The position numbers were made by a program, and so were the translations under genes. A DNA stretch of 64,000 bases from Escherichia phage I29: the sequence record ON286975; one strand, 5' to 3'. The notes under the pieces are model-generated. The model saw only the letters and a list, made by a program, of their open reading frames with translations, was not told where the DNA came from and made no database searches. The stretch's first letter is position 1; the number at the start of each line of letters is the position of its first letter. Positions 2,824-59,772 of this stretch are shown here, one piece after another.

Positions 2824-3642
2824 TTGAGCAAGAAAGAGTCCAACGACAAATATTACACAAACCCTGAGTATGCAGAATATCTTGTTGGTAAAGTAAAAGA
2901 TAAGTATGGAAATTGTGCATACGTTGAGCCTTCTGCTGGAAGAGGTTCTTTTTCAAAACTATTTTCAGAGATACTGTCGTACGATTTAGTACCAGATCCT
3001 GAATTTGAAGGGCCAACACCGTGCATTCAGGCAAACTTCTTGGAGGTGCACCCCAAGGCAGATGTCTTCATAGGTAACCCACCATTTGGCAAGAATTCAT
3101 CTTTAGCTTGCAAATTCTTCAACCATTGTGCATCATTGCTAGAGCTTGGAGGGGCCATAGCCTTCATCTTGCCACGGACATTTGAAAAAATATTTTTTGC
3201 AAACAAATTGGACATGTCGATGCACCTTGTCTACAGCGAAAGGTGCCCTAAGAATTCGTTTTTACTTAATGGCAAACCTTATGACGTGCCGTGTGTTTTC
3301 CAAATTTGGGAGAAAAAGGCGTGTAATAGGGATCCTGTAGAGATTGGAGAGAATAAGTTATTTTCTTTTAGCACTCCAGATGACTACGACTTCTGTGTAA
3401 GACGTGTTGGGTATAATGCTGGAAAAGTATTGGGGGATGATGACCCAAAATCTGAAGAATCGACATATTTCATAAAATCTTTAGTTGACGGTGTTGACAG
3501 AGTGTTTTCTGAATGCTATTCTTCTTTTCAAGAAGAAGCAGGTAAGACTGCCGGAATGAAGAGTATAGGCAAGAAAGAACTACAATACATTTTGGAGACC
3601 AGGTATGATCAAAAGCATAGACTTGACCAAAGAACTCACTGA
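2824..3642 (+). CDS. DNA N6-adenine methyltransferase
   Basis: Motif I EPSAGRGSF, motif IV NPPFG, YYT N-terminal motif; start placed at in-frame TTG after terminator hairpin and GGAGG (track ORF begins 2794). Confidence 0.65.
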   Translation: MSKKESNDKYYTNPEYAEYLVGKVKDKYGNCAYVEPSAGRGSFSKLFSEILSYDLVPDPEFEGPTPCIQANFLEVHPKADVFIGNPPFGKNSSLACKFFNHCASLLELGGAIAFILPRTFEKIFFANKLDMSMHLVYSERCPKNSFLLNGKPYDVPCVFQIWEKKACNRDPVEIGENKLFSFSTPDDYDFCVRRVGYNAGKVLGDDDPKSEESTYFIKSLVDGVDRVFSECYSSFQEEAGKTAGMKSIGKKELQYILETRYDQKHRLDQRTH

Positions 3643-4063
3643 TGCGAAAGCTTTTGGTGAGACAGCGGTACAAAGGGGGCAGGCAATGGGACTGGCACTA
3701 CCTTTCGTCTTAAAAGAGCACTTTACAGATTTTCAACTTATCAAGGGCGATAAGGGAATGCTTATCCTGGAGCATAAGTTGAGTAAGAAACGCTATAAAG
3801 TTGTTTTTAATTCTAAAGCTCCAACAAAACTGGGATTCAGAACTTACAATCTTAACCCATCCTACACTAAGGGTGTTGGAAGGGTAGAACAACAGCATTT
3901 CAGTGCCAGAGCTTCTTTAGCCCCTTTGATGCTAAATTTCTCAGGGGTGGCTTTAGGATACCTTGATAAGAAAAGAGTTCTTCATGTCCGTTTCACAGAC
4001 TTTGTAACGCTTTTAGCTAACAACGAGGTTGATGAAAAGGGACGTGTAAAAACAAACTTCTAA
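3605..4063 (+). CDS. hypothetical protein
   Basis: 152-aa ORF on cluster strand, overlaps methyltransferase 3' end. Confidence 0.4.
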   Translation: MIKSIDLTKELTDAKAFGETAVQRGQAMGLALPFVLKEHFTDFQLIKGDKGMLILEHKLSKKRYKVVFNSKAPTKLGFRTYNLNPSYTKGVGRVEQQHFSARASLAPLMLNFSGVALGYLDKKRVLHVRFTDFVTLLANNEVDEKGRVKTNF

Positions 4064-4090
4064 TAACGCATAATATGATTGGAGACCACA

Positions 4091-4282
4091 ATGACACTAA
4101 AGTTAACAATTCCAGACAGCTTTTCAGAAAACTTTATCCCAGAAATGATGAGTAAGATGCGATCATTGCTTGATCAGATTGAGGAGGCTGTTTGGGAAGA
4201 CGATGCTGTAGTGGCTAACGAGCTGGTAGATAAGTGTAAAAGTATTATTGATGCAGTTGAAGAATACCACGGAGGTTTTTGA
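4091..4282 (+). CDS. hypothetical protein
   Basis: ATG 4091 preceded by GGAG; stop overlaps next start (ATGA). Confidence 0.4.
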   Translation: MTLKLTIPDSFSENFIPEMMSKMRSLLDQIEEAVWEDDAVVANELVDKCKSIIDAVEEYHGGF

Positions 4283-4896
4283 TGGATATTATTGTTCTTA
4301 ACGCCCCACCCAGCAGTGGTAAGGATCACATTGCAGATCTCTTGTTGGAAGCTATTCCTAACTCACACCACCGTGAGGTTAAGGAGATGCTCTTCAGTGT
4401 GGCAATTAAGGCAGCTGGTGTAACTCCTCAACTCTGGAATGCCCTTTATGACCGCCACTACAAAGAAGAGCCTTGCCCTTTCTTAATGATAGACGGCAAG
4501 CATGTTTCTCCGCGAGAATGGATGATCCATTGTAGTGAAAATCTGATTAAACCTATCTTTGGTGAAGATGCTTTCGGTAAAGCCGCAGTCACATCTTTGA
4601 AGAAAGATTTCCCTGAAGGTAAAGGGGTTATTGTTTACTCCGATGGGGGATTCAAAGAGGAGCTGGCATGCCTTAGTGAGTACGCATACAGTACAGGTGG
4701 AGATCTGTTGTTGTTCCGTATTCACCGTGTAGGATATGACTGGGGAAATGATTCCAGAACCTACCTAAGTCTGGAAAAGAACGGAATAAAAGGGGTTGAG
4801 TTTGATGTTGTAAACCCTGAAGGTGCACCTTGGGAGTGTGCATCGGAGATTGTGTGCAAGTATATTGATGCTAAAGAGGCCCAAGAAGAATGTTAA
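4279..4896 (+). CDS. deoxynucleoside monophosphate kinase-like P-loop protein
   Basis: N-terminal P-loop-like NAPPSSGKD HIADLL, resembling phage dNMP kinases. Confidence 0.5.
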   Translation: MMDIIVLNAPPSSGKDHIADLLLEAIPNSHHREVKEMLFSVAIKAAGVTPQLWNALYDRHYKEEPCPFLMIDGKHVSPREWMIHCSENLIKPIFGEDAFGKAAVTSLKKDFPEGKGVIVYSDGGFKEELACLSEYAYSTGGDLLLFRIHRVGYDWGNDSRTYLSLEKNGIKGVEFDVVNPEGAPWECASEIVCKYIDAKEAQEEC

Positions 4897-5483
4897 TCGG
4901 AATTGATGTAGATCTGACACTGGTAGATTCAGGAACAGCATGGTGGGAGTGGTTGGAGCGTTTGTATGGTCCAGCCAGTAAGACAGTCGCTAAACCTTCT
5001 AATGGGTTAATGTATTACGATCTGTCAAAGTATTGGCCTGATCGCCCCAAAGAAAACATCATAGGGCCTTTTGATTTCTGGAGTGACCCGTTCCTTTACG
5101 ACTTTCTTAAGCCTGAAGAGGGGGCTATTGAGGTTATGAAAGATTTGGTGGCTCGTGGTCACAAGCTTGCGTTTATCTCGGTATGCAAGAAAGGTCACCT
5201 TGCATCTAAATCAAGGTTCTTAAAGCGTTGGACCAGTGATTTTATGGATCTGGACGATCACACCCAGGGCCACGGATTCTACGCCACACATTTCAAAGGG
5301 AATGTGGCTGTAGATGTTATAATTGACGACAGGCATGAATACCTGAACCAATTCGCTTCACGACCTGAAGTTATTAAAATCCTAAAAGATACGCCTTATG
5401 AGCAATTCGAGGAGTTAAAGGTCAGTATTGACTATACCGCCAATAGCTGGTATAAAATAGGAAAGTTTTTAGAAGGTATTTGA
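4890..5483 (+). CDS. HAD-superfamily phosphatase (putative 5'-deoxynucleotidase)
   Basis: HAD motif I IGIDVDLTLVDS (DxDxT) and VIIDDR motif; adjacent to nucleotide-metabolism genes. Confidence 0.5.
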   Translation: MLIGIDVDLTLVDSGTAWWEWLERLYGPASKTVAKPSNGLMYYDLSKYWPDRPKENIIGPFDFWSDPFLYDFLKPEEGAIEVMKDLVARGHKLAFISVCKKGHLASKSRFLKRWTSDFMDLDDHTQGHGFYATHFKGNVAVDVIIDDRHEYLNQFASRPEVIKILKDTPYEQFEELKVSIDYTANSWYKIGKFLEGI

Positions 5484-5484
5484 A

Positions 5485-5685
5485 ATGGGCAGATGTTCTA
5501 AAGGTGGCGATCCTGTAGTCAGATACGGAGACTGGCTAGAGGTATATAATCTGGAGGGAAAGCTAGTGTATGCTTCCAGGATCACCCAGGATATGTGCTC
5601 TGATATGTTTAACAGGTACCTTGCATTTAAGGCCAACATAAACCCAGACGAAATTTCCAAAATTAAAACAAGGAGAGCTAAATAA
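5485..5685 (+). CDS. hypothetical protein
   Basis: 66-aa ORF with GAAGG RBS; stop overlaps thyX start. Confidence 0.4.
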   Translation: MGRCSKGGDPVVRYGDWLEVYNLEGKLVYASRITQDMCSDMFNRYLAFKANINPDEISKIKTRRAK

Positions 5686-6668
5686 TGCTAAAACTGTGCA
5701 CTGCAAAGATTATTGCTGACAGCATTTCCGAGAAAGGTAAGCGTATAACCACTTTTGAGCTAGAGTATCCTAGAATCATTCACTCTGAACTCATGACACA
5801 CCGAGTTTTCAGCAGAAACGCCATGTCCTCTCGTGCAGTACCTGTTAACAAAATGCTGCAGCAGGTTGTGGAAAATCCTGCAATGCCAGTTCGTTTTGGT
5901 GTAAACCAGCGAGGTATGGAGGATGGTGGCGATCACGATCAGAAGATCCGTGTAGAGTATACTGATCTTGAGTTCTCTCCTGAAGAGTTCTGGAAAGAAG
6001 CTGCCAAAAATGCAGCCTGGCATGCAGAGAAGTTCGCACTTGCTGGTTACCATAAGCAAGTATGTAACCGCTTAGTGGAGCCTTTTCAGCGCATGAAAAC
6101 AGTTGTAACAAGCACCGAGTGGAATAATTTTTTCCACCTCCGTTGCTGGCACGATGCGGATCCTACGATTCAGATGTTGGCTAATTGTATGTGGGAGGCT
6201 CTTGGGAATAGCACTCCTGAAATCCTTAAACCGGGTCAATGGCACACCCCATATGTAGAGCACGTTTATTTGGACGGAGAGTTTAACTACGCTGTGCGTG
6301 ACACAGAAGGAAAGCTCTGCATTCTCGATACTAAAGAAGCTCTGTCTATCAGTGCTAGTTGCTGTGCACAAGTATCTTATCGAAATATTGACAGCACGTT
6401 TGAAAAGGCAGACAGTGTGGCTAAAAAATTGATTGGTGGGGATCGTATTCATGCAAGCCCTTACGAGCACCAGGCAACACCTATGGATCACGATAACGCA
6501 ATGGAACGTTTAAACTACTACCTGTCTTCATGTGAAATCACACAAGACATCAGTACTTGGCAGGAAGGTGTAACCCATCAAGACCGTGATGGTAAATTCT
6601 GGTCTGCCAACTTTTGTGGGTGGGTTCAGCACAGACAACTGCTTAATAACCACTTCGTGAAAGGTTAA
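5685..6668 (+). CDS. thyX: flavin-dependent thymidylate synthase ThyX
   Basis: ThyX signature region LMTHRVFSRNAMSSRAV (RHR-x7-S-like); AGGAGAG RBS. Confidence 0.7.
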   Translation: MLKLCTAKIIADSISEKGKRITTFELEYPRIIHSELMTHRVFSRNAMSSRAVPVNKMLQQVVENPAMPVRFGVNQRGMEDGGDHDQKIRVEYTDLEFSPEEFWKEAAKNAAWHAEKFALAGYHKQVCNRLVEPFQRMKTVVTSTEWNNFFHLRCWHDADPTIQMLANCMWEALGNSTPEILKPGQWHTPYVEHVYLDGEFNYAVRDTEGKLCILDTKEALSISASCCAQVSYRNIDSTFEKADSVAKKLIGGDRIHASPYEHQATPMDHDNAMERLNYYLSSCEITQDISTWQEGVTHQDRDGKFWSANFCGWVQHRQLLNNHFVKG

Positions 6669-6697
6669 TCCTATCACAGCGATAGGTAACTTTTGTG

Positions 6698-6726
6698 TTG
6701 ACTAATAGTATCAGATAATCTATAAT
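6698..6726 (+). promoter_or_regulatory. sigma70-type promoter
   Basis: TTGACT-17-TATAAT upstream of ORF 6767. Confidence 0.55.
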
Positions 6727-6766
6727 AATGGCTCACTTTGTTAGTGAGCCAGAAATGGAGACAGAT

Positions 6767-7228
6767 ATGAGTAATGTTATGATTCCTAAAAAGACATTTA
6801 TTTCAGTTACTTTGGATTTCCTATCTACCGTTCCCGGGTTTAACGTTCGCACACGAAACGGTCTCCGAGCTGCACTCTTTGCCGTAGGGTTCGATTTAAA
6901 AAGTATTGATGTTCTTCGTGGAAAAAACGTTCGATGCAAAAATAAGCCAACACATTATCGAAAGGCAGATGTATTTGCTGGTGTCATGCGTGCAGACTTT
7001 AGATATCCGCAAATGTATAACGGTGTAGATATTTTAGATGTAGATAAAGCACCCGGTGAGGCAATGCTTGTTCAAGATCTTCCGTATGATATCCCTGTAG
7101 AGGATCGTGTTAATGTAAGAAAGTATACAAAACAATCTGAAAAGGCTGAAGATATTCATATTGTTGATGAACCTTTCAATTTTGAAGATCTGCATCGCCT
7201 GGAAAAATTATTCGGTATTGAAAGCTAA
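6767..7228 (+). CDS. hypothetical protein (possible HhH-like DNA-binding motif)
   Basis: ATG 6767 after GGAGACAG; FNVRTRNGLRAALFAVGFDL resembles helix-hairpin-helix; weak. Confidence 0.45.
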   Translation: MSNVMIPKKTFISVTLDFLSTVPGFNVRTRNGLRAALFAVGFDLKSIDVLRGKNVRCKNKPTHYRKADVFAGVMRADFRYPQMYNGVDILDVDKAPGEAMLVQDLPYDIPVEDRVNVRKYTKQSEKAEDIHIVDEPFNFEDLHRLEKLFGIES

Positions 7229-7238
7229 GGTGGTGAAG

Positions 7239-7469
7239 ATGAGTCATAACTCCAAGTGGAAGGATCTTGGTTTTGCAAGCCGGGCAGAGTATGTTGGTTG
7301 GCTTTGGTTCAATGGCCTGACAAACGATATTAAAATGTATGATGATGTCTATTATGACGAGTATACAGGTAAAATTATAAATATCTCTGTAGAAGAGGAT
7401 ACTTTTATCCAGCAAGATACTGATACCTGCCTTGATAAATACGTTAGTGAAGTGGAGGAAGCAAATTGA
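7239..7469 (+). CDS. hypothetical protein
   Basis: ATG 7239 after AAGGTGG RBS; overlaps nrdA start. Confidence 0.45.
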   Translation: MSHNSKWKDLGFASRAEYVGWLWFNGLTNDIKMYDDVYYDEYTGKIINISVEEDTFIQQDTDTCLDKYVSEVEEAN

Positions 7470-9781
7470 TCACCAAGGTAATTAAAAGCAACGGATGTGA
7501 AGTGGCATTCGATCCAGAACGTTTAAATAAGGCAGCTATTTTCGGTGACGACGGTAACGGCAATTGGTCACACATTGCACTGGATGCATACAAACGACTG
7601 TATGATGGATGTACAACCAAAGAAGTTAACCAAGCTATCATAGACTCCTGTGTTAGCCGTAAAGACGAAGCACATTCCCGTATGGCTGGTCGTGTTCTTA
7701 TTGGTCAGATTTATAAAGAGGCTTTTGGAGGGTTTACAAAGATCCCTTCCTTACCATCATTTTACAATACCATGGTTGAGAAAGGGTATTGGGAGGATAT
7801 GGGCTATAGCTTTACCGAGCTAAACACTTTAGACGCTGTTATTGACCACAGTAAAGATCTCGGTTATGGCTATGCAGTCCTTAAACAGTTTCGCGACAAA
7901 TACGGGATCAAGGATACTCTTAAAGACACCCTGTTTGAATCTCCCCAGATGATGTTTATGGGGATAGCAATGGCTGTCATGAAGAATATGCCGAAAGAAC
8001 GTCGTATCAACGATGTTGTAAAATTGTACACTTATCTGTCCGACTTAAAGATCAATGCCCCGACACCGTACTTAAACGGGCTGCGCACAGGTAAGACAGG
8101 GTATGCATCTTGTTGTGTAATAAAAGCTGACGATACAGCAAAATCTATTGGTGTGGCACGTGAAGTTGCGTACACAATGACGGTTAACCAAGCAGGTATC
8201 GGCTACTATTTATCATCAAGATCTGCAGGCGATGGTGTTCGTGGTAACACTATTAAACATATGGGTAAGATTCCATATTATCGAGGTATTGATGCTGGGG
8301 TTAAGGAGAACAGACAACAATCACGTGGCGGTTCTGCAACAGTATCATTCCTTGCACTGGACCCGCAGATTGATGAGCTAATCCGTTTGAGAAACCCTAT
8401 GACTGTTGCTTCAAAAAGAATCAACACCATGGACTACTCCATCGGTATTAATAGGTCGTTTATCAACCGTGTGGCTAAGAATTTGGATTGGATGCTTGTT
8501 TCTTATAAGCACGCGCCTCAACTGCATGAGGGTATCTTCACCATGTCTATGGAGGAGTTTGATGCAGAGGTTGATCGTATCGCTAAAGATGACAGTATTC
8601 CTAAAACATGGATCCGAGCTAGAGATCTTGCTGTTGAGCTGATCACGCAGCGTACCGAGGTGGGAAGACTGTACGTATACTGGACAGATGAGATGAATAG
8701 ACATACACCTTTTAAAGATGTGATCTATTCAAGTAACCTGTGTGCAGAAATAGCTCTCCCGACAAAAGGCTATTCAGATATGCGTAATATCTTCAAGCAC
8801 GATGTTGATGATGGCGAAGTTGCATTGTGCTTCCTGTCATCTCTTGTAGCTGGAAGGGTTACCCCAGAGGAGTATGAGGATGTTGCATACTACACGGTGC
8901 TTATGATTGACAATGTTATGGAAATCATGACATATCCGTATGAAAATATGGAAAGCACAGTTAAAAAACGCAGATCCATCGGGGTTGGCCTTACCAATGT
9001 TGCACATTTTATTGCCAGCCACAAGGTTACTTACGGATCTCCTGAAAGTAAACAGCTCGTTCACGATCTTGCAGAACTTCACAGCTACAGCTTGCATAAG
9101 GCAAGTTTACGGTTGGCAAAAGAGCGTGGTGTCTGCGAGTGGATGCATAAAACAAAATATCCAGAAGGTTGGTTACCAATCGACACCTACAACAAAGAGG
9201 TCGATAGCGTGGTGAAAGATCCTTCTCTTAAACAGGATTGGGAAGGGTTACGTAAAGAAATCATTGAAAATGGTGGGCTACGTAATAGCGTTCTTGAAGC
9301 ATATATGCCTAATGAAAGCTCTTCGCTGGCAACAAACACCACTAACGGGGTTTATCCTGTCCGTGAGCACATTATCTTTAAAAAGTCGCCACAAGGGCAG
9401 GTGCTGTTTATCGTTCCTGACTATGATGAGTTGAAAGAGTATTACACCTCGGCTTGGGACGTTGATACTAACGACATGATCGATATGTATGCTGTAATTC
9501 AAAAATTCACAGGTCAGGCAATCAGCGCGGATTTATACATAGACTACACCAAGTTGAAAGATGGTAAAATTTCAATGAAGGAGCAGTTAGGGTACCTTAT
9601 CCGTGCCACTAAATTCGGGATGAAGACATGGTATTATTTAAACTCTAGGGTTGGTGCTGGTGACTCCTTGGCAGAGGAACTTCATGCCAAGAAACAGGCT
9701 GAAGATGAAACCAGAAAGAACTATCCTTTGATTGCAGATAGTTCAGTTGAAGATCCGTATTGCGAAAGCTGTGCACTATAA
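7466..9781 (+). CDS. nrdA: ribonucleoside-diphosphate reductase alpha subunit (class I)
   Basis: 771 aa; N-terminal ATP-cone; class I active-site NLCAEIALPT; TTG start after GGAGGA. Confidence 0.9.
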   Translation: MITKVIKSNGCEVAFDPERLNKAAIFGDDGNGNWSHIALDAYKRLYDGCTTKEVNQAIIDSCVSRKDEAHSRMAGRVLIGQIYKEAFGGFTKIPSLPSFYNTMVEKGYWEDMGYSFTELNTLDAVIDHSKDLGYGYAVLKQFRDKYGIKDTLKDTLFESPQMMFMGIAMAVMKNMPKERRINDVVKLYTYLSDLKINAPTPYLNGLRTGKTGYASCCVIKADDTAKSIGVAREVAYTMTVNQAGIGYYLSSRSAGDGVRGNTIKHMGKIPYYRGIDAGVKENRQQSRGGSATVSFLALDPQIDELIRLRNPMTVASKRINTMDYSIGINRSFINRVAKNLDWMLVSYKHAPQLHEGIFTMSMEEFDAEVDRIAKDDSIPKTWIRARDLAVELITQRTEVGRLYVYWTDEMNRHTPFKDVIYSSNLCAEIALPTKGYSDMRNIFKHDVDDGEVALCFLSSLVAGRVTPEEYEDVAYYTVLMIDNVMEIMTYPYENMESTVKKRRSIGVGLTNVAHFIASHKVTYGSPESKQLVHDLAELHSYSLHKASLRLAKERGVCEWMHKTKYPEGWLPIDTYNKEVDSVVKDPSLKQDWEGLRKEIIENGGLRNSVLEAYMPNESSSLATNTTNGVYPVREHIIFKKSPQGQVLFIVPDYDELKEYYTSAWDVDTNDMIDMYAVIQKFTGQAISADLYIDYTKLKDGKISMKEQLGYLIRATKFGMKTWYYLNSRVGAGDSLAEELHAKKQAEDETRKNYPLIADSSVEDPYCESCAL

Positions 9782-9788
9782 TTTTAAA

Positions 9789-9808
9789 GGGGCTTCGGCC
9801 CCATTTTA
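9789..9808 (+). terminator. hairpin with UUCG loop after nrdA
   Basis: ggggc-ttcg-gcccc followed by ATTTT. Confidence 0.45.
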
Positions 9809-9819
9809 GAGGTAGAATA

Positions 9820-10908
9820 ATGGCTGTATTTAATGCTGAGAACACCGCTCATAAAACTGGTGACTATCCGCTGTTTCTGGGACAGCAAATGGGTATGTAC
9901 GACTCTATCAACAAAAAATATCCACAACTGTTTGAACTATACAAAAAACAAAAAGAGCAAGATTGGGCAGAGGATGAAGTGGATTTGTCGCAATCTATTT
10001 CAGATTTTGTAACATGCTCAAAGTCAACTTATGACGTGATGGTACAGACCTTGATGTGGCAATGGGAGGCTGATAGCGTTGCGGCAAGATCGATCATCTG
10101 CCTCTTTTCACCATTCATCACTAATAGTGAGCTTTTCACTCTATTGATGAAACAGTCAGAGATTGAAGTTCTTCACGCACTAACTTACTCAGAGATTGTT
10201 AGACAATGCCTCCCCAATGCCCGTGAGATTATAGAAGAGATTCAGGAAAACCAAAACGTTCTGAGCAGATCCGGCGTTATTGTCAAATACATGCAAGAGC
10301 TTGAGGTTATTGGTGCAAAATACCGCCTGGATCCTTCTAGTGTTGAAGAAGATATTGTGCGGAAATGCATTCTTAGAGCGCTTTTTGCACTTTTAGCCCT
10401 GGAAAGTATTGAGTTTATTGCAAGTTTTGCATGCACTTTCGCAGTAGCTGAACAGGGTATTTTTGTTCAGGTGGCGCAGCTTGTTCAAAAAATCATGCTT
10501 GACGAAATGCTACATTCGAAAGGTGATTTTGCCATCATTGATATCTTGCTTAACGATCCCGCATGGGAGAAAAGCTTCCTGGAGATAAAAGGGGAGTTAA
10601 AAGAGATTCTTGATGAAGTACGAACCAAAGAGTACGGTTGGAGTGACTATATTTTCAGCGAAGGAAGAGCGATTATAGGTCTTAACTCACCGTTGCTTAA
10701 AGAATGGGTTGACTATAACTGCTCACCGATTTATGATTACTACGACATCGACAAAGACTTTGTGCCGCCAACAAAGGACCCGCTACCGTTTATGCAGGTG
10801 TGGATGAAACCTTCATTGCAACAGACGGCGAACCAAGAAATGTCGAACACTGACTACCGCGTCAACACAACTGTTAACGACGCTGAAGAAGAAATTTGGG
10901 AGTTTTAA
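9820..10908 (+). CDS. nrdB: ribonucleoside-diphosphate reductase beta subunit
   Basis: ATG 9820 after hairpin and GAGGTAGAAT; ferritin-like ExxH (DEMLHSKGDF); directly follows nrdA. Confidence 0.8.
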   Translation: MAVFNAENTAHKTGDYPLFLGQQMGMYDSINKKYPQLFELYKKQKEQDWAEDEVDLSQSISDFVTCSKSTYDVMVQTLMWQWEADSVAARSIICLFSPFITNSELFTLLMKQSEIEVLHALTYSEIVRQCLPNAREIIEEIQENQNVLSRSGVIVKYMQELEVIGAKYRLDPSSVEEDIVRKCILRALFALLALESIEFIASFACTFAVAEQGIFVQVAQLVQKIMLDEMLHSKGDFAIIDILLNDPAWEKSFLEIKGELKEILDEVRTKEYGWSDYIFSEGRAIIGLNSPLLKEWVDYNCSPIYDYYDIDKDFVPPTKDPLPFMQVWMKPSLQQTANQEMSNTDYRVNTTVNDAEEEIWEF

Positions 10909-10911
10909 TAT

Positions 10912-11190
10912 ATGAGCTGCGAAAAATCTTTTTTCATCATCATTTACGGTAAGGATAACTGCCCACATTGTGTCAGAGCAAAAGAATTTGCAATCAGCAA
11001 AGGTCTGCCTTTTGTATATAAGACACTTGGCGAGGGCTACACAAAAGAAGAGCTTATTGAGAAGTGTAGTCCAATCGTCCCCCGAACGTTGCCGCAGATC
11101 TTCTTAGAAAGCGATCTTGACAGTATCCATATAGGCGGTGCCGACGATTTCATCTCTTTTGTTAAGAATGGTTTTGGAGAGAAAAAGTGA
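10912..11190 (+). CDS. glutaredoxin/NrdH-like redoxin
   Basis: CPHC thioredoxin-fold active site near N-terminus; 92 aa; between nrdB and nrdD. Confidence 0.75.
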   Translation: MSCEKSFFIIIYGKDNCPHCVRAKEFAISKGLPFVYKTLGEGYTKEELIEKCSPIVPRTLPQIFLESDLDSIHIGGADDFISFVKNGFGEKK

Positions 11191-13325
11191 AAGTTGTAAA
11201 ACGGGACGGTAGAGAAGAGTTCTATAACGGAATTAAGGTGATCAAGGCGGCAGAGTCCGCCTTACTTGAGTCTGGACATACTGAAGAAGAAGCTTACCGG
11301 ATCGCTTGTGCGGTTAATGAAGTTGTTGCTAACAATCTGCCAACCGACCAGTGCACGATCTCTGTAAAAAATATCCATATCCTTGTTGAAGATGCTCTTA
11401 TGGATATGGGTTTAAAATGTGCAGCCAGAGAATACATCCAGTATAGACAGACAAGAGATAATAACAGAGAGGCAGGTGGAAAACTGCTTGCAGATATTAG
11501 TGGCTTCTTGGATCGAACTTGTGATGAATTTACAAAAGAAAACGCAAATAAGCCCACTAATCATGTACACACTCATCGTGACCTGCTTGCAGGCATCCTT
11601 AGCAAACACCTTGCATCAACACAGATCCTGCCAGACCGTGTCTCCGAAGAGCACAATAAAGGCTTCATCCATGTGCATGATCTTGACTACTTGATCAGTC
11701 CGTTAACAAACTGTTGTTTGGTAAATTATCCAGATATGCTGGAAAACGGATTCAACATTGGTAACGCCCATGTCAGTAAGCCGAAGTCAATAGGGGTTGC
11801 AACAACAATCCTTAGCCAAATCTCCAGTGCGGTAGCTAGTGCTCAATATGGTGGTCAGACTATGAGCCATATTGATCATTATCTGGCACAGTATGCTGAA
11901 GCGACCTATGAGAAGAACCTTAAATTTTGCCAGGAACATTGGTTGCCAGATGCTGAGACCGTTGCAATGCAAATGACAGATAAAGACGTGTTTGACAGCA
12001 TGCAGACTTTGCTCTATCAAATCAATACGTTAACCTCTGTCAACGGGCAAACTCCATTCATCACATTAAGTTTAGGACTGGATACCTCGGTCTTTGGTAG
12101 AATGATTACCAAAAATTACTTGAAAGTCCACAAAATGGGTCTTGGTGAAGAACGGATCACACCTGTGTTCCCTAAAGTGCTGTTCTTCCTAGAAGAGGGT
12201 GTCAACATGAGCCCTAGAGATCCTAACTATGATTTGAAACGATTAGCTCTGGAATGCTGTGCAGAACGTATCTATCCTGACTTCGTATCTGTACCACTAA
12301 ATAGAAAAGTGACAGGCTCGACAGATGGCAAAGTAACGAGCATGGGTTGCCGGAGTTTTCTTAGCAAATACAATGACTTGGAAACAGGCGAGGAGAAATA
12401 CCTTGGCAGATTTAACTTAGGCGTTGTTAGCCTTAACCTGCCAATGATTGCGGCAAAAGCTAAGACGGAAGGTGTTGATTTCTTTGCAGTTCTTGACGAA
12501 TACTTAGATCTTGCATACGAGGCTCACCTTGTAAGGGTTAACCGTCTAAAAGGAACAAAGGCAGGGCAGAACCCCATCATGTGGTGTGAAGGCGCTCTTG
12601 CTCGCCTGGATCCTGAAGAAAGTATTGATAAACTCTTCTATGACGGGTACGCTTCCATCAGCATTGGGTACATTGGTGTGTATGAAACCTGTCAGATTTT
12701 GGGCAGAGAAGGTGACAAGGCTTTAGCTCTTGGAATCCTTCAGCACATGAGAGATGCTTGTGAGCGATACAAGAAGGAAAGTAGACTAGCATTTAGCTTG
12801 TACGGCACTCCTTCTGAGAGTCTATGCTATAAAGCTGCAACCTGTCTGGATCGTGAATATCCAGAAGTGTTAAAGCACGAGCATGAATATCTCACCAACA
12901 GTTTCCATCAGCCAGTATGGATCAATAGCTCTCCTTTTGATAAGTGGGAGTATGAGGAAGGTTTTGCTATGATCTCCTCCGGTGGCAACATCGGATACGT
13001 AGAGACACCTAACCTGAAAAACAACCTTGATGCTTTAGAGGCTCTTGTTGACTTCGGGTATAAACACATTATGTATTTTGGTATTAACCAACCTGTGGAT
13101 AAATGTCTCAAGTGTGGTTTCTCTGGTGAGTTCAGTGCAACAGCTAAAGGGTTCTGCTGCCCTGCGTGCGGATGCCACGATGAACAATATATCTCAGTGA
13201 TCCGAAGAGTGTCTGGCTATCTCTCCAGCCCGAACAGTAGGCCGTATAACACAGGTAAACAAGCAGAGGTTATCGAACGTGTTAAACATGTTGGGAATGT
13301 AGACTGTTGTCCGTTGAGTAAATAA
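11187..13325 (+). CDS. nrdD: anaerobic ribonucleoside-triphosphate reductase
   Basis: GTG start after GGAGAG; N-terminal ATP-cone (MKVVKRDGREEFY); C-terminal glycyl-radical RVSGYL and CxxC...CxxC. Confidence 0.9.
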   Translation: MKVVKRDGREEFYNGIKVIKAAESALLESGHTEEEAYRIACAVNEVVANNLPTDQCTISVKNIHILVEDALMDMGLKCAAREYIQYRQTRDNNREAGGKLLADISGFLDRTCDEFTKENANKPTNHVHTHRDLLAGILSKHLASTQILPDRVSEEHNKGFIHVHDLDYLISPLTNCCLVNYPDMLENGFNIGNAHVSKPKSIGVATTILSQISSAVASAQYGGQTMSHIDHYLAQYAEATYEKNLKFCQEHWLPDAETVAMQMTDKDVFDSMQTLLYQINTLTSVNGQTPFITLSLGLDTSVFGRMITKNYLKVHKMGLGEERITPVFPKVLFFLEEGVNMSPRDPNYDLKRLALECCAERIYPDFVSVPLNRKVTGSTDGKVTSMGCRSFLSKYNDLETGEEKYLGRFNLGVVSLNLPMIAAKAKTEGVDFFAVLDEYLDLAYEAHLVRVNRLKGTKAGQNPIMWCEGALARLDPEESIDKLFYDGYASISIGYIGVYETCQILGREGDKALALGILQHMRDACERYKKESRLAFSLYGTPSESLCYKAATCLDREYPEVLKHEHEYLTNSFHQPVWINSSPFDKWEYEEGFAMISSGGNIGYVETPNLKNNLDALEALVDFGYKHIMYFGINQPVDKCLKCGFSGEFSATAKGFCCPACGCHDEQYISVIRRVSGYLSSPNSRPYNTGKQAEVIERVKHVGNVDCCPLSK

Positions 13326-13336
13326 GGAAAGAGGTG

Positions 13337-13369
13337 GAGAGCAAGGATGCTCTCATTTTTTTTTTTTTT
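13337..13369 (+). terminator. strong intrinsic terminator after nrdD
   Basis: gagagc-aaggat-gctctc hairpin followed by a 14-T run. Confidence 0.7.
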
Positions 13370-13376
13370 GTTTTTA

Positions 13377-13405
13377 TTGACTTCTATTCCTCTTTTCTAT
13401 AGTAT
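13377..13405 (+). promoter_or_regulatory. sigma70-type promoter
   Basis: TTGACT-17-TAGTAT upstream of ORF 13444. Confidence 0.5.
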
Positions 13406-13443
13406 GCAATATAAAGTGAATAGCGGAAGGGTCTGGTCTGGTA

Positions 13444-14376: not shown

Positions 14377-14428
14377 TTGTAGAAAGATATGCATATCTTA
14401 AACATGCTATTAACTAAGGAGGTGCAGT

Positions 14429-14545
14429 ATGTCATCAGGTATTTATAAAATTTGCAAGTGCGGCTGTAGTTGCAATCTTCGTTGGTGCAAGGCACTAGAC
14501 GATTTTATTTGGCATTGCCCTAAATGTGATGCGGAGTATCTATGA
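14429..14545 (+). CDS. small Cys-rich (zinc-ribbon-like) protein, 38 aa
   Basis: MSSGIYKICKCGCSCNLRWCKALDDFIWHCPKCDAEYL; AAGGAGG RBS; stop overlaps nrdG ATG (ATGA coupling); below track length cutoff. Confidence 0.5.
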   Translation: MSSGIYKICKCGCSCNLRWCKALDDFIWHCPKCDAEYL

Positions 14546-15015
14546 ACATTGTCGGATACACAGAAATATCTTACACCGAAGGGCCAGGTATTAGAACTGC
14601 CTTGTGGGTATCTGGGTGCCCACACGCTTGCCCTGGTTGCTTTAATCAGGCATTTTGGTCAAAAGATAAGGGGAGGGAGTTCACTGAAGAAGACTTGCAA
14701 AAAATCTTGTCAGATTTAGATAACCCGTCTGTGTGCGGTATCTCTCTGCTGGGTGGAGAACCCTTAGCATACTATAATGAGCCAGATATTATTAGCCTGA
14801 TGGAGAAAATTAAGGAAAAATTTGGTGACAAGAAAACTATTCTTGTATATACTGGGTTCACATTTGACCATATCTCTAGTGATGTTCTTAAACTGGCTGA
14901 TATCATCATTGACGGTAAGTATGTAAAAGATTTACCAACCAAGAAACCGTTCCGAGGCAGTGATAACCAAAGAATGTTTAAAAAAGTATCAGGCGGTTGG
15001 GTTCAGGTAGACTAG
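14542..15015 (+). CDS. nrdG: anaerobic ribonucleotide reductase activating protein (radical SAM)
   Basis: CPHACPGC (CxxxCxxC) radical-SAM motif; 157 aa; follows nrdD. Confidence 0.85.
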   Translation: MNIVGYTEISYTEGPGIRTALWVSGCPHACPGCFNQAFWSKDKGREFTEEDLQKILSDLDNPSVCGISLLGGEPLAYYNEPDIISLMEKIKEKFGDKKTILVYTGFTFDHISSDVLKLADIIIDGKYVKDLPTKKPFRGSDNQRMFKKVSGGWVQVD

Positions 15016-15018
15016 TTG

Positions 15019-15048: not shown

Positions 15049-15079
15049 TATCGTAAAATGAAAGTAGAGGAGGTGCCAA

Positions 15080-17903: not shown

Positions 17904-17925
17904 AGCCCTCTTCGGAGGGCTTTTA
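17904..17925 (+). terminator. intrinsic terminator
   Basis: agccctc-ttcg-gagggct followed by TTTT. Confidence 0.65.
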
Positions 17926-17941
17926 TGATCTGGAGATTTGC

Positions 17942-18475
17942 ATGACTTGTGCTAGAAAACCTGATGAACAACGTAACGCCTACGATGAGTATGTGACACC
18001 GGAGTGGTGTGCAGAAGGGCTGTATGACCTTATTCCGTTCCCAGAAGACTGGACCTACTTAGAGCCTTGCAGGAATAGTGCCTCAGGTGTGTTCTACTCC
18101 CGTATGCCGTTAGGATCTGCATGGGGAGAAATCCAAGAAGGTGTTGACTATCTGAATACAGAATACAACCATGTTGACTGTATTATCACCAACCCGCCGT
18201 ACAGCCTGGCTCGTGAGTTTGTGGACAAGGCGTTGAAAGATGCCGACGTAGTTATTATGCTTTTGCGTCTTAATTTTCTGGAAAGCAAGGCCAGATTTGA
18301 ATGGTGGCTTGATAATGCACCTACCACTGTGATCACAATATCTAAGCGTCCGTCATTCCAATCTAATGGTAGAACGGATGGGCAGGCATATGCATATTTT
18401 GTGTGGGATAAGAAAAACCGTTTAGACTTGCCGCCATTTATGTGGTTGGCACCCCCAGAGGTAGACCTGAAATGA
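17942..18475 (+). CDS. small phage Dam-like DNA N6-adenine methyltransferase
   Basis: DCIITNPPYS (motif IV NPPY) and YVTPEW; 177 aa. Confidence 0.6.
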   Translation: MTCARKPDEQRNAYDEYVTPEWCAEGLYDLIPFPEDWTYLEPCRNSASGVFYSRMPLGSAWGEIQEGVDYLNTEYNHVDCIITNPPYSLAREFVDKALKDADVVIMLLRLNFLESKARFEWWLDNAPTTVITISKRPSFQSNGRTDGQAYAYFVWDKKNRLDLPPFMWLAPPEVDLK

Positions 18476-54457: not shown

Positions 54458-56881
54458 ATGGTAATAGATAATACGACGAACACCTTCATCGTACCACCCA
54501 CGCTTCACCATTTGATGGTGCATGAGTATCCCAACTAAGTCACACAACGATGCGCCGCCATTTTGTTGGTATGCATTAAGTAAAGAGTGTTTAGATCGGG
54601 TCCAGATAGCATGACCATCAAAAGAGTAGATAAACTTCTTACCCGTTGCTTCCCAGAATTTCTCCAGATCTTCTTTACGCCCCTTAAGACCAGGGTTGGC
54701 ATCCCAGAGTGCATCGATTACCCTTTGTCCCAACTCTGGAGAGATGTCCAGCATATCTGCAACTTTATCTTTTTGTGCCCCATACATAACCCCATACGTG
54801 ATAGGTTTACCGTCGTTACGAGACACCTCTCTACCTGCTACTTTTGTATATGCCTCAGCATTGTTTTGGTGTGCGTCCCCGTTACTTACAACATCGTAAT
54901 ACAGGCCGTTGTCGAACTCAAAGGCACCCCAAGCCCCGATAAGCTGCTCTAAGTTGGACCCGTCAATACCGATCTCAAAGTATCCTGGAGGAACACCCCA
55001 CAGACTGCGCATCTCTTTACCCATAACCACTTTAGGAGATGGTTTAGGCATGTTTGCACAAATACTGTGTTTCTGTCGGGAAGTGTTTGTTAATCCAGAA
55101 CTTTTAGCAGGAAGCTTATGGTCAATCTTCAAACGTGGGTGATTAAGAAGACCAGTATCAACCTTATCCTCCTTGATTGGATCAAGGACCGATCTGCGGT
55201 TTCGCAATGATAACCACAAGACGATATCTTTAGCCATCTCTCCGTTCAATTTTTCAAGATTCGGGCATAGGTGTCCAAACGTATCTTTCAGTTGCGGAGA
55301 AGTAATAAGTGCCCTAGCTTTTCTACGTATTTTCCCGAATACTTCCTTTTTAATCCTTTCGGAGTTAGGAAAGCTTCGGAACTTGTGCACGGTTGTCTGA
55401 AACTTAGCATCAGTTTTGTTCCAGAAGTTGATAATCAGGTCACAATACTCTGACTCTAAAAGCTCGTCCATGTATGCATATACTCGTGCATCAACATCTG
55501 CATCAGGTAGAGCTTTCTTCTTGCTGTCTTTAGTTACATCCTTAGTTCTCCACATTGTCGGAAGCCAACCAGCACTGATCAGGTATCGCTTAATGTCGTC
55601 CTGATTGCTGATTTTCATAGGTATCTTGCAGTCCGGCATTCGCTTCTGCTGTAGATCACTTATTGCCTGATCCATCAGCTCTTTAGGTAAAGGTTGTGGT
55701 GTGGAAGTGCCCTTAATATAGCCTCTCAAGAAATCAGCCATCTTATCAGGGTCTTTGCAGCCCATCTCTTCACACCATTTTATCCCCATCTTGCTGACAT
55801 CTCCTGTGGAGGTAAATGCTCGCTTAGGCGGGGCTTTGAACTCCAAAGCACTCATGTCCACAGGATAGCCAAGCTTATCTTTTAACCATTTCCAACCATT
55901 GTTGGAGATTGTCCCATCTTGGTTAAACGGCTTTTCAGGGAACTTGGGCCGCTGAGACATTGACAGCTCTTTTAAAGGAAGTTGAGGTTCAACACGATCA
56001 GCGATTTCTTTCATCCACGCATCGCAACGGTCACGTAAAGCAATAGCTCCATCTATGTCGAAGTATACACCCTGACGGGCCTGCAGCTCCATCAGGAAGT
56101 GCTGCAGCATGCCTCGGCGTAATGCGTTCTTCCAGGTGATTTTCTTGAACCCTTTCGGCTTCTCTTTGGCTGGATCGTACATAAAGTTCTGCATGTCAGA
56201 TTTGCCGTAGAATACACCTTTTGATTCCGCTACCAGCTCTTTCCAGAGCAGCTCCTGGATGATAACGTCCTCGAATACACGATCCACATACTTCCACAAC
56301 GGAAGATCGCGCCAGTCATCAATTTGAACTTTCTGGTTACCAAGGGCGTAGCCCCATGCCATAAGGCCGTGAGGACCAACAGGCTGCATTTTCTTAGTAA
56401 CCGGGTTGAATACAGAGTCCGGACAACCTTTTGGTAAAGGGCGATCAGGCCACAAGATTCTGCTCATCGCCAACGTATCAAACAGGTTAACCTGGTGGTC
56501 GTTGATAGTCCCCATGCATTTAGGATCACGGAACATATCAAAATGAATACCGGATAATCTTTCCATCAGCATAAAGTCATAACTGTAGCAGTTATGGCAG
56601 TTCAAAGCTGTTGGTGACCAGTCGGAATTGCCTGTAAGCCAACCTTCCAACTCCGAAAAATCTGCTATGCGAACTTCAAAATCTTTATGAAGAGTTTTCT
56701 TTGCCAGAATAAAGTTCTTAGCCTTCTCTATATCCTCTTCGGAGTAGTGTGTGCGGTCATTTAGAGGAAGGAACAGCATAAAACGGTTCTTATTCAGCTC
56801 TTTAAACAGGCCGCAGTGATAATAAAGATCTGGATCTTCCAGCAAACCGGATGACTCAAAGTCGAACGACCACATGCTCAT
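54458..56881 (-). CDS. DNA polymerase (family A) with 3'-5' exonuclease, exon 1
   Basis: Exo I FDFESSG; motif A DGSNLEQLIGAW; motif B KPITYGVMYGAQ; ends ...GWYDEGVRRIIYYH just before motif C; AAGGAG RBS. Confidence 0.85.
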
Positions 56882-56939
56882 ATACAGTTCTCCTTAAAGG
56901 GGAGGCGGTTGTACTACCCCTCCCACTCTTTGTTAAACA

Positions 56940-59018
56940 TTAAAAAGGTGTTTCATCATCCTCAAAACCAGGGACCGGATCAGAGGATGGATCATCGTAT
57001 TGGAGGTCTTCCTGCGTGTCAATAGGCTTGACAGTGGGTGTTACAACCTTATCAGCCACAACCTTGCCCATAGGTGTTTCTACAACTGCATGCTCCTGAT
57101 CCTCAAACATAGCCTGAGGTCTCCAAACAACCTCCCCACCTTCTCCGTCTGTAAACATCTGCATTTCTTTGTCCCAGTACCAATTACTGGCATCATGGAA
57201 CTTACCTGTATGCGGATCCATAACTAAAGTGTCAGCAATACCTAAAGTTTTTGCTGGACGGTTTTTAAGACCTACCAGACGGACACGTCCACGAGAACGA
57301 TCCACCATTTCTTCGGCCTCGACACCTATGACTACCCAACTCAACTGTTCAAGCCCAGCCGATCCTCGCAAATTCTCTTTTCGCACAGGATACCAGAAAG
57401 GTAATGGGTTACCATCCTTGTCCTTAGGGGGCACAATCTCTGTACGTTTGAGGTGAGCGATCACCAAGATAAACACGTTAAACTGCTTACAAAACGCAGC
57501 CAGTTGGGTCATAGCCATGTCCAGTTCTTTTCGCTCATCCTTAACATTAAGCCCTGAAATTACCATGGACAGGTGATCCAGCACAATATAACGACAATGG
57601 TACAGGCAAACCATTTGCTTAAGCTTGGTAATCAACTCGTCCACTGGAATAGACCCGAAATGTTTGAACACTTTGATTTTTCCAGCTTTTGCCCATGATT
57701 GGTGAATCTCTGCGTGTTCTTGATCAGTTAAAAACTGGCTAGGATCTTCAACAAACTCTTTAACATCAAACCCTAACTGGTTTGCATACAAGGAGTTAAT
57801 TGCTTCCTCTGGGTCCTCCTCAAGATGAATCATGCATAGACGATCATCCTCTTCATAGTCATCGGCCTTCGGGCATGTCGGGTCCATTAGGTATCTTGCA
57901 ATACAGTGTTCCAGTTTTTTAGCCACGGTTGTTTTACCGCCGCCTGATGGACCTGTAAGCATTACAAGTGTCCCTTTGTGCAAGCCTTTTAGCATTTTTT
58001 GCAGTTTTGGGAACTCTGCACTGATATCTACCCCGTTGGAAGTCTTTTTCCGCAAAGACTCGATAGAGAAGTCTTCTAAATCCGACACAGCATCAGGCAC
58101 ATATTTAACAGGGTGCCGGAACATGTTGACAATATCTTCCAGCTTTTTAGCCTTCAGCATGTCTCGGATATCTTTTACACCGTCAGGGTCATTTACTTCA
58201 CCAGGGTATTCTACGTGGTAAACGTTATCAGCCATCAAAAATGCTGCGATATTGTGCGTGGCCTCAACACCTTTAATGACGTGTTTTTGCTTCTCTACCT
58301 CGTTAGCTGCATCGTTATCCATTGCCAGCACAACTGTTCCATAGCTACGGATAAACTTCTCATTGTTTGCAAAAGTATCTACTGCGTTTGCACATCCACA
58401 GTTAATTCCAACAAAAGGCAGGCAGGGTTTTCCTGCCAGATCACCACCGTTGATAACTGCGTCGATCCCGTCCTGGACCTCTTTAGCCCACTGCTTCACC
58501 TTTGCCGGGGCTTTAGCGTTGGTGAGAATCCCTTTTACTTGTATCTGATATGCAGCCTGCCATGCTGCAATAACATCACCTTCTCCCTCACAAACGTTAA
58601 TCTGCTTACGGTTGTTGGAAGATGCACACAGCTTTTGACCAAACATCTGGGAGTTGGCCTTTACGATGCCAACAACGGAGAAATGGCCCCTTTGCTCTTT
58701 AGGAATAGTCCAGTCACGCTTTTTGAAACCAGACAGATTTCCGTAGCGGTCGTAATATGGGAAATATGTTGCAGTGACTGTCACACCGTCTTCTTGGGAC
58801 AATGCTGATCGCACACCAAAATATTGTGCAGCCATCAGACCGATATTTTGTTGTGGGACAGGGACAATTTTAGTATTTTCTAAAACAGTCTCTACAGTTT
58901 CAACTTCTTTTTCATCACGATAGTCTCGTTTCACACTTCCCCCACTTTTATACTTAGTTGCTTTCGGGTTTGGCTCACCGAAACGGTTGTATGCAGATGC
59001 CATAAATTTACTTCCCAT
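56940..59018 (-). CDS. primase-helicase (TOPRIM primase + DnaB-like helicase)
   Basis: TOPRIM VCEGEGD...MDNDAANE; helicase Walker A GPSGGGKTT; AAGGAG RBS; no N-terminal zinc finger seen. Confidence 0.8.
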   Translation of the reverse strand: MGSKFMASAYNRFGEPNPKATKYKSGGSVKRDYRDEKEVETVETVLENTKIVPVPQQNIGLMAAQYFGVRSALSQEDGVTVTATYFPYYDRYGNLSGFKKRDWTIPKEQRGHFSVVGIVKANSQMFGQKLCASSNNRKQINVCEGEGDVIAAWQAAYQIQVKGILTNAKAPAKVKQWAKEVQDGIDAVINGGDLAGKPCLPFVGINCGCANAVDTFANNEKFIRSYGTVVLAMDNDAANEVEKQKHVIKGVEATHNIAAFLMADNVYHVEYPGEVNDPDGVKDIRDMLKAKKLEDIVNMFRHPVKYVPDAVSDLEDFSIESLRKKTSNGVDISAEFPKLQKMLKGLHKGTLVMLTGPSGGGKTTVAKKLEHCIARYLMDPTCPKADDYEEDDRLCMIHLEEDPEEAINSLYANQLGFDVKEFVEDPSQFLTDQEHAEIHQSWAKAGKIKVFKHFGSIPVDELITKLKQMVCLYHCRYIVLDHLSMVISGLNVKDERKELDMAMTQLAAFCKQFNVFILVIAHLKRTEIVPPKDKDGNPLPFWYPVRKENLRGSAGLEQLSWVVIGVEAEEMVDRSRGRVRLVGLKNRPAKTLGIADTLVMDPHTGKFHDASNWYWDKEMQMFTDGEGGEVVWRPQAMFEDQEHAVVETPMGKVVADKVVTPTVKPIDTQEDLQYDDPSSDPVPGFEDDETPF

Positions 59019-59772
59019 TAATTCTGCTCCTTACTACAGGCTCGTTTGCTAAGAATACGGCTTTTGCCCAGCCACGTGGTGTGAGGCTTCGGATCATCTT
59101 CGTTCTTGCACTCTTTCCACCCAGCTTGGCGTGTTGCATGGAATACCCGCTAACCGCGTCAACTATTTGCTGGACAGGTTTTGTGGCCGGGATTATAAAT
59201 CCATTACCTATCCAGCCGCAAGTTATTTTTGGATAGGCATCACGTGGAGCTATAAATTCAGGAAACCAGGGGTTTACATCATCCTCCGGTAAATACCCGC
59301 CATAGTCAGAAGGATGAAAACGGTAATCAGGTTTGCGCCACAGTGTGGACATAACACCAACAGGATTCTCTACATGCCACGGGCAATCGTAAATCTCTCC
59401 CAGCTCTTCCGCAACCCGAGCATCCTTTACAGCATTAATTTGGATCAAAGGATCCTTAGCCAGCTTTTTCTTAAAATGTGCAGCACCTGATACCGCTAAA
59501 TGCGTGCACGGAGGAAATGCAAGAACAAAGTCCGGAGCTGGGTACATGCAGAAAGTTTCCTGAGGGAACCATGGATCAATCCAATAATCTACATAGTGAA
59601 TATTTGGATGATCGGTGATCACCTCTGCATAACTGCCGTGGTCAGCACCTTCTGCGTTAAAGCACAGGCACAGATATCCAGCTTTTGCCCAGTCAATGAC
59701 TGCACCGCCAGATCCGTCAAATAGACTCCACACAACACCTTTGTGGTAGTGTTCTTTATAGATAAATTTCAA
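59008..59772 (-). CDS. DNA cytosine-C5 methyltransferase-like protein
   Basis: Motif I LFDGSGGA, catalytic PPC (PCT not PCQ), ENP motif HVENPVG; start placed at TTG 59772 after AGGAG, downstream of terminator. Confidence 0.55.
   Translation of the reverse strand: MKFIYKEHYHKGVVWSLFDGSGGAVIDWAKAGYLCLCFNAEGADHGSYAEVITDHPNIHYVDYWIDPWFPQETFCMYPAPDFVLAFPPCTHLAVSGAAHFKKKLAKDPLIQINAVKDARVAEELGEIYDCPWHVENPVGVMSTLWRKPDYRFHPSDYGGYLPEDDVNPWFPEFIAPRDAYPKITCGWIGNGFIIPATKPVQQIVDAVSGYSMQHAKLGGKSARTKMIRSLTPRGWAKAVFLANEPVVRSRINGK

Follow-up and report, generated by a model that had tools for sequence, protein, structure and literature searches.

The window analysed here, 64,000 nt of Escherichia phage I29 (ON286975), contains three methyltransferase genes, labelled MT1, MT2 and MT3. 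MT1 (2824..3642, plus strand) encodes a 272-aa M.TaqI-like N6-adenine methyltransferase with the motif IGNPPFG, MT2 (17942..18475, plus strand) a 177-aa minimal N6-adenine-type methyltransferase core with ITNPPYS, and MT3 (59008..59772, minus strand) a 254-aa compact Dcm-like C5-cytosine DNA methyltransferase. An earlier note on this DNA had described the same three genes as methyltransferase-like; all three open reading frames (ORFs) are present, and its coordinates and motifs (NPPF, NPPY, FDGSGG, PPC and ENP) are exact. Its division into two N6-adenine-type enzymes (NPPF/NPPY) and one C5-cytosine-like enzyme is backed by PHROG matches, by homologues and by the predicted folds of MT1 and MT3. 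We propose that I29 probably carries its genus's usual three orphan S-adenosylmethionine (SAM)-dependent methyltransferases, with MT1 and MT2 producing N6-methyladenine (m6A) and MT3 producing 5-methylcytosine (5mC).

Megablast with both ends of the window gives over 100 matching phage genomes (95-99% identity), nearly all of them Escherichia phages of the genus Vequintavirus, and on sequence similarity the source phage is assigned to Vequintavirus as an rV5-like E. coli myovirus. MT1, MT2 and MT3 are 98-100% identical to annotated methyltransferase genes in more than 100 public Vequintavirus genomes. In the BASEL phage HeinrichReichert, MT1 (bas58_0195) and MT2 (bas58_0175) are each labelled 'putative N6 adenine methyltransferase' and MT3 (bas58_0073) 'Dcm-like C5 cytosine methyltransferase'; in phage naam, MT1 is a 'putative DNA N6-adenine methyltransferase' (naam_195) and MT2 a 'putative methyltransferase' (naam_173). 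Papers on relatives have already mentioned predicted adenine and cytosine methylases (including PMC7344957 and PMC12210895). As a set, the three genes are usual for rV5-like E. coli phages and had been annotated before; their presence is an ordinary finding. The present result is of small weight, as the genes were annotated before and one family, that of MT3, has been experimentally characterised in another phage.

Support for the three genes comes from whole-protein families. The NPP-type tetrapeptide [DNS]PP[YFWH] occurs in 5 of the 369 six-frame ORFs of at least 60 aa, with two or three of the five being spurious frames, and by itself it is weak evidence for a methyltransferase. At the level of PHROG families, MT1 matches phrog_5172 (E=4e-129), MT2 phrog_799 (E=8e-67) and MT3 phrog_757 (E=1e-86). 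Each family comprises hundreds to thousands of homologues in which the catalytic residues are invariant. None of the three proteins drew a useful match when its single sequence was searched against the PDB, and profiles built from the three families detected no further methyltransferase-like ORF in the window.

The genes show signs of maintenance. Relative to HeinrichReichert and naam, they differ at 5-29 synonymous and just 1-6 non-synonymous positions, giving ratios of non-synonymous to synonymous change (pN/pS) of 0.05-0.13 for MT1, 0.02-0.11 for MT2 and 0.06 for MT3. Values of 0.02-0.13 indicate maintained genes and not relics. Each of the three also has its own ribosome-binding site (RBS) upstream.

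Comparison of the neighbouring ORFs with Pfam and PHROGs identified no recognisable restriction endonuclease beside MT1, MT2 or MT3. The neighbours at 3605-4063, 4079-4282, 18442-18756, 18764-19030, 59824-60306 and 60319-60714 have no significant Pfam domain and fall into PHROGs of unknown function. Other neighbours, named from annotated relatives, are an exonuclease, a ClpP-like protease and a primase/helicase. Because no nuclease-like neighbour of the restriction type was detected, the three genes are classed as orphan methyltransferases.

The adenine-type genes MT1 and MT2

MT1 is situated between a DnaQ-like exonuclease gene and a P-loop NTPase/kinase gene. Its upstream signals (2786..2819, plus strand) comprise a terminator-like, GC-rich hairpin with a T-run (2786-2805, from a terminator scan), which follows the exonuclease gene and precedes the RBS, and GGAGG at 2815-2819, read directly. 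Since GGAGG stands directly ahead of it, the TTG at 2824 is the true start of MT1, and the longest-ORF start at 2794 is not real. The gene was found in 223 phage records (tblastn). In unrelated phage contigs, MT1 homologues adjoin primase-helicase/PolA or ribonucleotide reductase genes.

MT1 carries its motifs in the order X-I-IV, as DKYYT, EPSAGRGSF, D-L-x-P and IGNPPFG. Across 30 homologues at 40-84% identity, D-x-Y-Y-T, EPSAGxGxF, D-L-x-P and GNPPFG are invariant, and the C-terminal half is conserved too. The motif region aligns to Ta1320, METTL5 and M.TaqI, and the protein matches the REBASE-derived PADLOC model MTase_II (PDLC03255) over its full length (E=2.4e-34). Its family, phrog_5172, is listed in PHROGs as 'unknown function'; Pfam Eco57I scores it at 15.5 bits against a cut-off of 25.3, and no NCBIfam model matches. 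The AlphaFold model has a predicted local distance difference test score (pLDDT) of 92, and the structures closest to it are methyltransferases of the class expected. In this model, the C-terminal domain superposes on the recognition domains of DNA methyltransferases, and it is predicted to be a target-recognition domain of the TaqI/BseCI type.

The gamma-class enzymes M.TaqI, M.BseCI and CamA are larger, at 421-585 aa against the 272 aa of MT1, and share 15-18% identity with it; MT1 does not reach the Pfam thresholds for Eco57I and N6_Mtase. METTL5, PH1948 and Ta1320, which act on ribosomal RNA (rRNA) with the partner TRMT112, lack the C-terminal domain of about 100 aa found in MT1. MT1 fits type II DNA methyltransferase models far better than it fits rRNA enzymes of the METTL5/PH1948/Ta1320 type.

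The ORF that follows MT1 on the plus strand (3605-4063, 152 aa, overlapping the end of MT1 by 38 nt) is called 'putative DNA N6-adenine methyltransferase' in the naam_194, nom and nomine records. It was considered as an N6-adenine methyltransferase and rejected: it carries no methyltransferase signal, matching phrog_9938 (unknown function) and giving empty Pfam and NCBIfam searches. A role as specificity partner of MT1 was likewise rejected, as the ORF is not kept beside distant MT1 homologues. The label looks like a propagated annotation error.

MT2 starts at an ATG and belongs to phrog_799, annotated 'DNA methyltransferase'. The signals upstream (17904..17935, plus strand) are a hairpin, AGCCCTC-TTCG-GAGGGCT, with a T-run and then a GGAG RBS; they were read directly, and the terminator scan did not flag the hairpin. 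The gene follows a ClpP-like protease gene in a pairing that is conserved across Vequintavirinae, and tblastn found it in 543 phage records.

The motif order is again X-I-IV, here YVTP, LEPCRNSASG and ITNPPYS. The family alignment shows Y-x-T-P (X), EPCxGxG (I) and TNPPY, with core motifs continuing to roughly residue 155 of 177; T19, T83-N84-P85-P86, R109, R136, D146 and W155 are invariant. A protein of 177 aa with a conserved core reaching residue 155 or so leaves no room for a target-recognition domain. Against the PDB, the MT2 profile matches M.TaqI residues 21-111 (E=3.5e-5), spanning motifs X-I-IV, and the M.TaqI motif I, EPACAHG, resembles the EPCRNSASG of MT2; the next matches are Erm and type I M subunits. 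The Pfam families EcoRI_methylase, Dam and Eco57I give sub-threshold scores for MT2 and for its relatives. The same profile also finds MT1 (E=4e-7), so MT1 and MT2 are distant paralogues.

The earlier note had called MT2 'small Dam-like'. The description holds as far as a small, core-only protein with a weak Dam match is concerned: members of the small phage Dam family, at about 170 aa, are likewise scarcely more than a catalytic core, and 9 of 32 MT2 relatives match PF05869 at E<0.01. Membership of the family itself is not borne out, since MT2 reaches 19.2 bits (E=0.001) against a cut-off of 28.1 for PF05869 and 16.1 bits against 97 for TIGR01712. This family (PF05869/TIGR01712) includes the enzymes of phages HP1 and T1. 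With scores below the cut-offs, MT2 is best placed in a sister family to small phage Dam, and GATC specificity should not be assumed for it. A DNA m6A role is likely for MT2, though less secure than that of MT1.

The cytosine-type gene MT3

MT3 reads on the minus strand from a TTG at 59772 to a stop at 59008. Its upstream signals (59781..59868, minus strand) comprise a putative sigma70-like promoter, TTGACA-17-TACAAT (59868-59840), matching the consensus at 11 of 12 positions in a pattern scan, then a hairpin with a T-run (59819-59794) and AGGAG (59785-59781). Because AGGAG precedes it, the TTG at 59772 is the true start, and the longest-ORF start at 59802 is not real. In the relative CB7, sigma70-like promoter sites have been reported in the region of the helicase, DNA methylase and polymerase genes (PMC7344957). 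The putative promoter of MT3 lies within the end of the upstream gene, and the strong hairpin and T-run come directly after it, with the MT3 RBS only then. This odd order could reflect an attenuator or a stabilising 5' hairpin.

The stop of MT3 overlaps the start of the primase/helicase gene. In I29, the two genes overlap directly at 59008-59018, unlike in HeinrichReichert, where a homing endonuclease gene (bas58_0074, 672 bp) separates them. The few amino-acid differences seen in MT3 cluster in its C-terminal tail, beside this junction.

The catalytic motifs of MT3 are those of a C5-cytosine enzyme. Motif I, FDGSGG, occupies residues 18-23 after a predicted strand (13-17) and lines up with its counterpart in M.HaeIII, DNMT3B and M.HhaI. 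C89 of motif IV (FPPC) and E135 of motif VI (ENP) are invariant in 40 family sequences at 30-53% identity. C89 aligns with C81 of HhaI and with the PC of DNMT3B, and E135-N136-P137 stands at the end of a predicted strand (132-136). WR146KPD and the C-terminal RSLTPRGWAKAV helix are conserved and resemble motifs VIII and IX/X, though sequence alignments to canonical enzymes stop at motif IV.

With a narrow profile of the MT3 family, motifs I-IV could be aligned to DNMT3B and M.HaeIII; a broader profile (A4) performed worse against the PDB, and hhalign of the family against M.HhaI covered motifs I-IV only, with low probability. MT3 itself has no Pfam, NCBIfam or PADLOC match, PF00145 being absent even at E<=1, and a few of its relatives barely pass PF00145 (24.7 and 25.4 bits, the cut-off being 22). 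The AlphaFold model (pLDDT 89) has a predicted C5-methyltransferase fold nearest to that of DNMT3, and its top 50 Foldseek matches are all DNMT3 or a prophage C5 methyltransferase.

The family to which MT3 belongs is large. A homologue search returned 3,518 proteins, and an exhaustive profile search gave 2,035 clusters at 50% identity, nearly all of 210-260 aa, in which the motif IV context is (A/G/S)(F/Y)PPC. A tblastn search located MT3 in 1,502 records of phages, among them Drexlerviridae, Dhillonvirus, Phapecoctavirus and a large number of Klebsiella phages. As nearly all members are of this length with FPPC(T), the short length and FPPC-T are family traits and not peculiar to I29. The earlier note had taken PCT in place of the canonical PCQ, together with the short length of 254 aa, as a hint that MT3 could act on nucleotides or be a non-canonical modifier. 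This inference is not supported: FPPC(T) is normal in this family, which numbers about 2,000 clusters, the PCN motif of DNMT3B also lacks Gln, and 254 aa is within the family norm.

The closest functional evidence comes from phage K42, which is 95% identical to the BASEL phage KarlJaspers and has a dcm gene of 711 bp. K42 Dcm puts 5mC on the DNA of retron Ec86 (Eco1), as shown by liquid chromatography coupled to mass spectrometry (LC-MS) on its multicopy single-stranded DNA (msDNA), and triggers this retron; a CCTGG site is required, and a C82A/E128A/K175A/K176A mutant is inactive (bioRxiv 10.1101/2023.08.16.553469; published Cell Rep 2024). The 711-bp bas06_0055 of KarlJaspers (Bas06), whose product is nearly identical to the K42 enzyme, has Cys82, Glu128, Lys175 and Lys176 exactly at the positions mutated in K42, and is 53% identical to MT3 over the full length (E=2e-86).

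Both enzymes are compact (236 aa for K42/KarlJaspers Dcm, 254 aa for MT3), with MT3 having a 10-residue N-terminal extension relative to K42 Dcm. They have FDGSG, FPPCT, ENPVG, WRKPD and RSLTPRG in common, and the predicted fold of each is nearest to DNMT3A. At a constant offset of 7, the K42 Dcm residues C82, E128 and K175 have their counterparts in C89, E135 and K182 of MT3. With this identity and these matching K42 residues, MT3 falls into a family that includes a DNA 5mC methyltransferase with biochemical support.

The canonical enzymes are more distant. DNMT3A/B and the PF00145 enzymes M.HhaI and M.HaeIII share 13-18% identity with MT3, with template modelling scores (TM-scores) of 0.4-0.55. 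Bacterial type II C5 enzymes are 70-100 residues longer than MT3, in which, unlike M.HhaI and M.HaeIII, no separate recognition domain is identifiable by sequence.

Proposed functions and alternative explanations

The features described above are consistent with a working model for each enzyme. MT1, with a Rossmann-type core bearing NPPF and a small C-terminal recognition domain, would most likely form N6-methyladenine at a short, specific DNA site. The core-only MT2, with its NPPY, would most likely form the same product, probably in DNA. In MT3, Cys89 would attack C6 of a flipped-out cytosine, Glu135 would protonate N3, and the methyl group of SAM would pass to C5, giving 5mC in double-stranded DNA. 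The three proteins are presumably active, and newly replicated phage DNA would be their substrate. Each gene lies within a replication or nucleotide-metabolism module, a location that fits methylation of replicating phage DNA. Any benefit may consist of protection solely against restriction enzymes whose sites overlap the targets of the three enzymes, as opposed to general anti-restriction.

Several observations weigh against this interpretation. All three proteins fall below curated Pfam/NCBIfam thresholds, and the cores of MT1 and MT2 are about as similar to rRNA m6A methyltransferases (METTL5, Erm and KsgA) as to DNA enzymes. In MT3, Ile183 replaces Lys176 of K42 Dcm (PKIT against FKKT), most relatives in the narrow alignment having KK, and the variable loop before KLGGKS reads GYSMQH (a 'GYSxQH' subtype) in place of the DNPGW of K42; because of this residue and this loop, the K42 target site is not transferable to MT3. 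Across the whole window, observed/expected ratios are 1.05 for GATC, 0.86 for CCWGG and 1.04 for TCGA, the GATC and CCWGG frequencies show no avoidance, and none of the three gives a clue to specificity. The BASEL data show no obvious protective phenotype (PMC8594841). The literature searched yielded predictions and no methylome or biochemical data for Vequintavirus enzymes, the sole exception among relatives being a ClaI digest of Pectobacterium phage CB7 that was read as Dam-type methylation (PMC7344957).

Among the alternatives, it is possible, although we regard it as unlikely, that MT2 and perhaps MT1 methylate RNA (adenine N6 in rRNA or transfer RNA (tRNA)) or protein glutamine, thereby adjusting the host translation machinery. 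The core of MT1 is closest to METTL5, PH1948, Ta1320, Erm and KsgA, the Joint Genome Institute (JGI) uses the name 'predicted RNA methylase' for relatives, and one of the relatives scores above the cut-off of Pfam RrnaAD. The MT2 profile matches Erm (E=8e-5) nearly as well as M.TaqI, matches HemK weakly, and describes a protein with no DNA-recognition domain. Set against these points are the full-length match of MT1 to the type II DNA methyltransferase model and the superposition of its C-terminal domain on DNA recognition domains. The Pfam families matched by most MT2 relatives (EcoRI_methylase, Dam and Eco57I) are moreover all DNA methyltransferases, and both genes are found in DNA-metabolism modules.

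A role in the phage's own biology appears similarly doubtful as the principal explanation. Methylation might mark DNA for packaging or recombination, time gene expression, or protect against the phage's own homing endonucleases. The modular location of all three genes would suit such a role, as would the overlap of MT3 with the primase/helicase gene, and the genomes of relatives are rich in homing endonucleases, including the one beside MT3 in HeinrichReichert. The lack of an anti-restriction phenotype in BASEL points the same way (PMC8594841). However, the same families occur in Drexlerviridae, Dhillonvirus and jumbo phages, and this presence in very different phages speaks for a function that is general and portable.

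Broad, layered protection from host restriction-modification (RM) by the three enzymes together, as the earlier note had suggested, we consider quite improbable. Orphan phage methyltransferases are classically anti-restriction. This role is also stated in PMC12210895, and the phage has three enzymes with two chemistries, all under purifying selection. Nevertheless, BASEL Vequintavirus phages with the same three genes were 'exceptionally susceptible' to RM types I, II and III, and relatives at 97-98% nucleotide identity with these genes 'lack any effective protection' (PMC8594841). Site-specific methyltransferases, furthermore, shield overlapping sites only. The exceptional restriction sensitivity found in BASEL leaves broad multi-layer protection unsupported.

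The narrower proposal of three orphan methyltransferases with limited benefit has to accommodate a discrepancy, namely that the genes are under strong selection, yet the phages are highly restriction-sensitive in the laboratory. Enzymes of the MT3 type are in addition a known liability, since retron Ec86 is able to sense cytosine methylation. Vequintavirus phages may pay a defence cost for whatever benefit methylation gives.

The least probable alternative is a non-canonical MT3, raised in the earlier note and here taken as action on free nucleotides or as CmoX-like carboxymethyl transfer from host carboxy-SAM. Free-nucleotide cytosine modifiers, such as deoxycytidine monophosphate (dCMP) hydroxymethylase, have a thymidylate-synthase fold, and this difference in fold leaves nucleotide-level action by MT3 unsupported. 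As for carboxymethyl transfer, E. coli makes carboxy-SAM, and the FPPC of MT3 and its R233 at the start of the C-terminal helix recall the SPPC and Arg of CmoX. DNMT3 enzymes use SAM, however, and their motif X, GRSW, presumably has an Arg at the R233 position. CmoX itself (PDB 8YF3) is a DNA cytosine C5-carboxymethyltransferase with SPPC and Arg350 replacing HhaI Asn304 as hallmarks (PMC12783734). MT3 has FPPC instead of SPPC, the placing of R233 at HhaI Asn304/CmoX R350 rests on secondary structure, and R233 is variable across the wider family (TPM/L/K/E/N-GF). The 53%-identical K42-type Dcm, with the same TPRGF Arg, yields 5mC in DNA by LC-MS. With a CmoX enzyme, a phage CmoA and usually a ligase would be expected nearby; the corresponding 66 kb of HeinrichReichert has neither CmoA nor an amide ligase annotated, although host CmoA could substitute.

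That MT3 and its TPRG subfamily install 5-carboxymethylcytosine through carboxy-SAM made by E. coli CmoA is accordingly a very improbable proposal; if true, a handle for hypermodification would be widespread in enterobacterial phages. A less exotic possibility concerns MT2, which, lacking a recognition domain, might be a sequence-non-specific or partner-dependent adenine methyltransferase.

Further features of the window

GATC is very frequent in the window, with 345 sites, or one in roughly 185 bp. Among 4-bp palindromes, CTAG (observed/expected 0.48) and GTAC (0.63) are the most under-represented, and the GC-rich 6-bp palindromes GGCGCC, CCGCGG, CGGCCG, CTCGAG, GCTAGC and GTCGAC have zero sites.

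ARAGORN identified no tRNA genes in the 64-kb window, and no Rfam family reached its gathering score there. rV5 has been reported with six tRNAs, and such genes must lie beyond the window.

An exact direct duplication of 546 bp (30851-31396 and 31445-31990) is present within about 3 kb that contain no long ORF, between two oppositely oriented blocks of small genes. An inverted copy of their first 65 nt links the two copies, and the junction at 31444/31445 is palindromic. The duplication is either a real recent event or an assembly artefact. Relatives match a 1,801-bp duplication query over about 1,245-1,310 bp and thus have a single copy.

About 20-40 unannotated GenBank records (MG0656xx, 'Campylobacter phage', host C. 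jejuni) match window positions 1-20000 and 55000-64000 at 97-100%. These are probably mislabelled or contaminant genomes.

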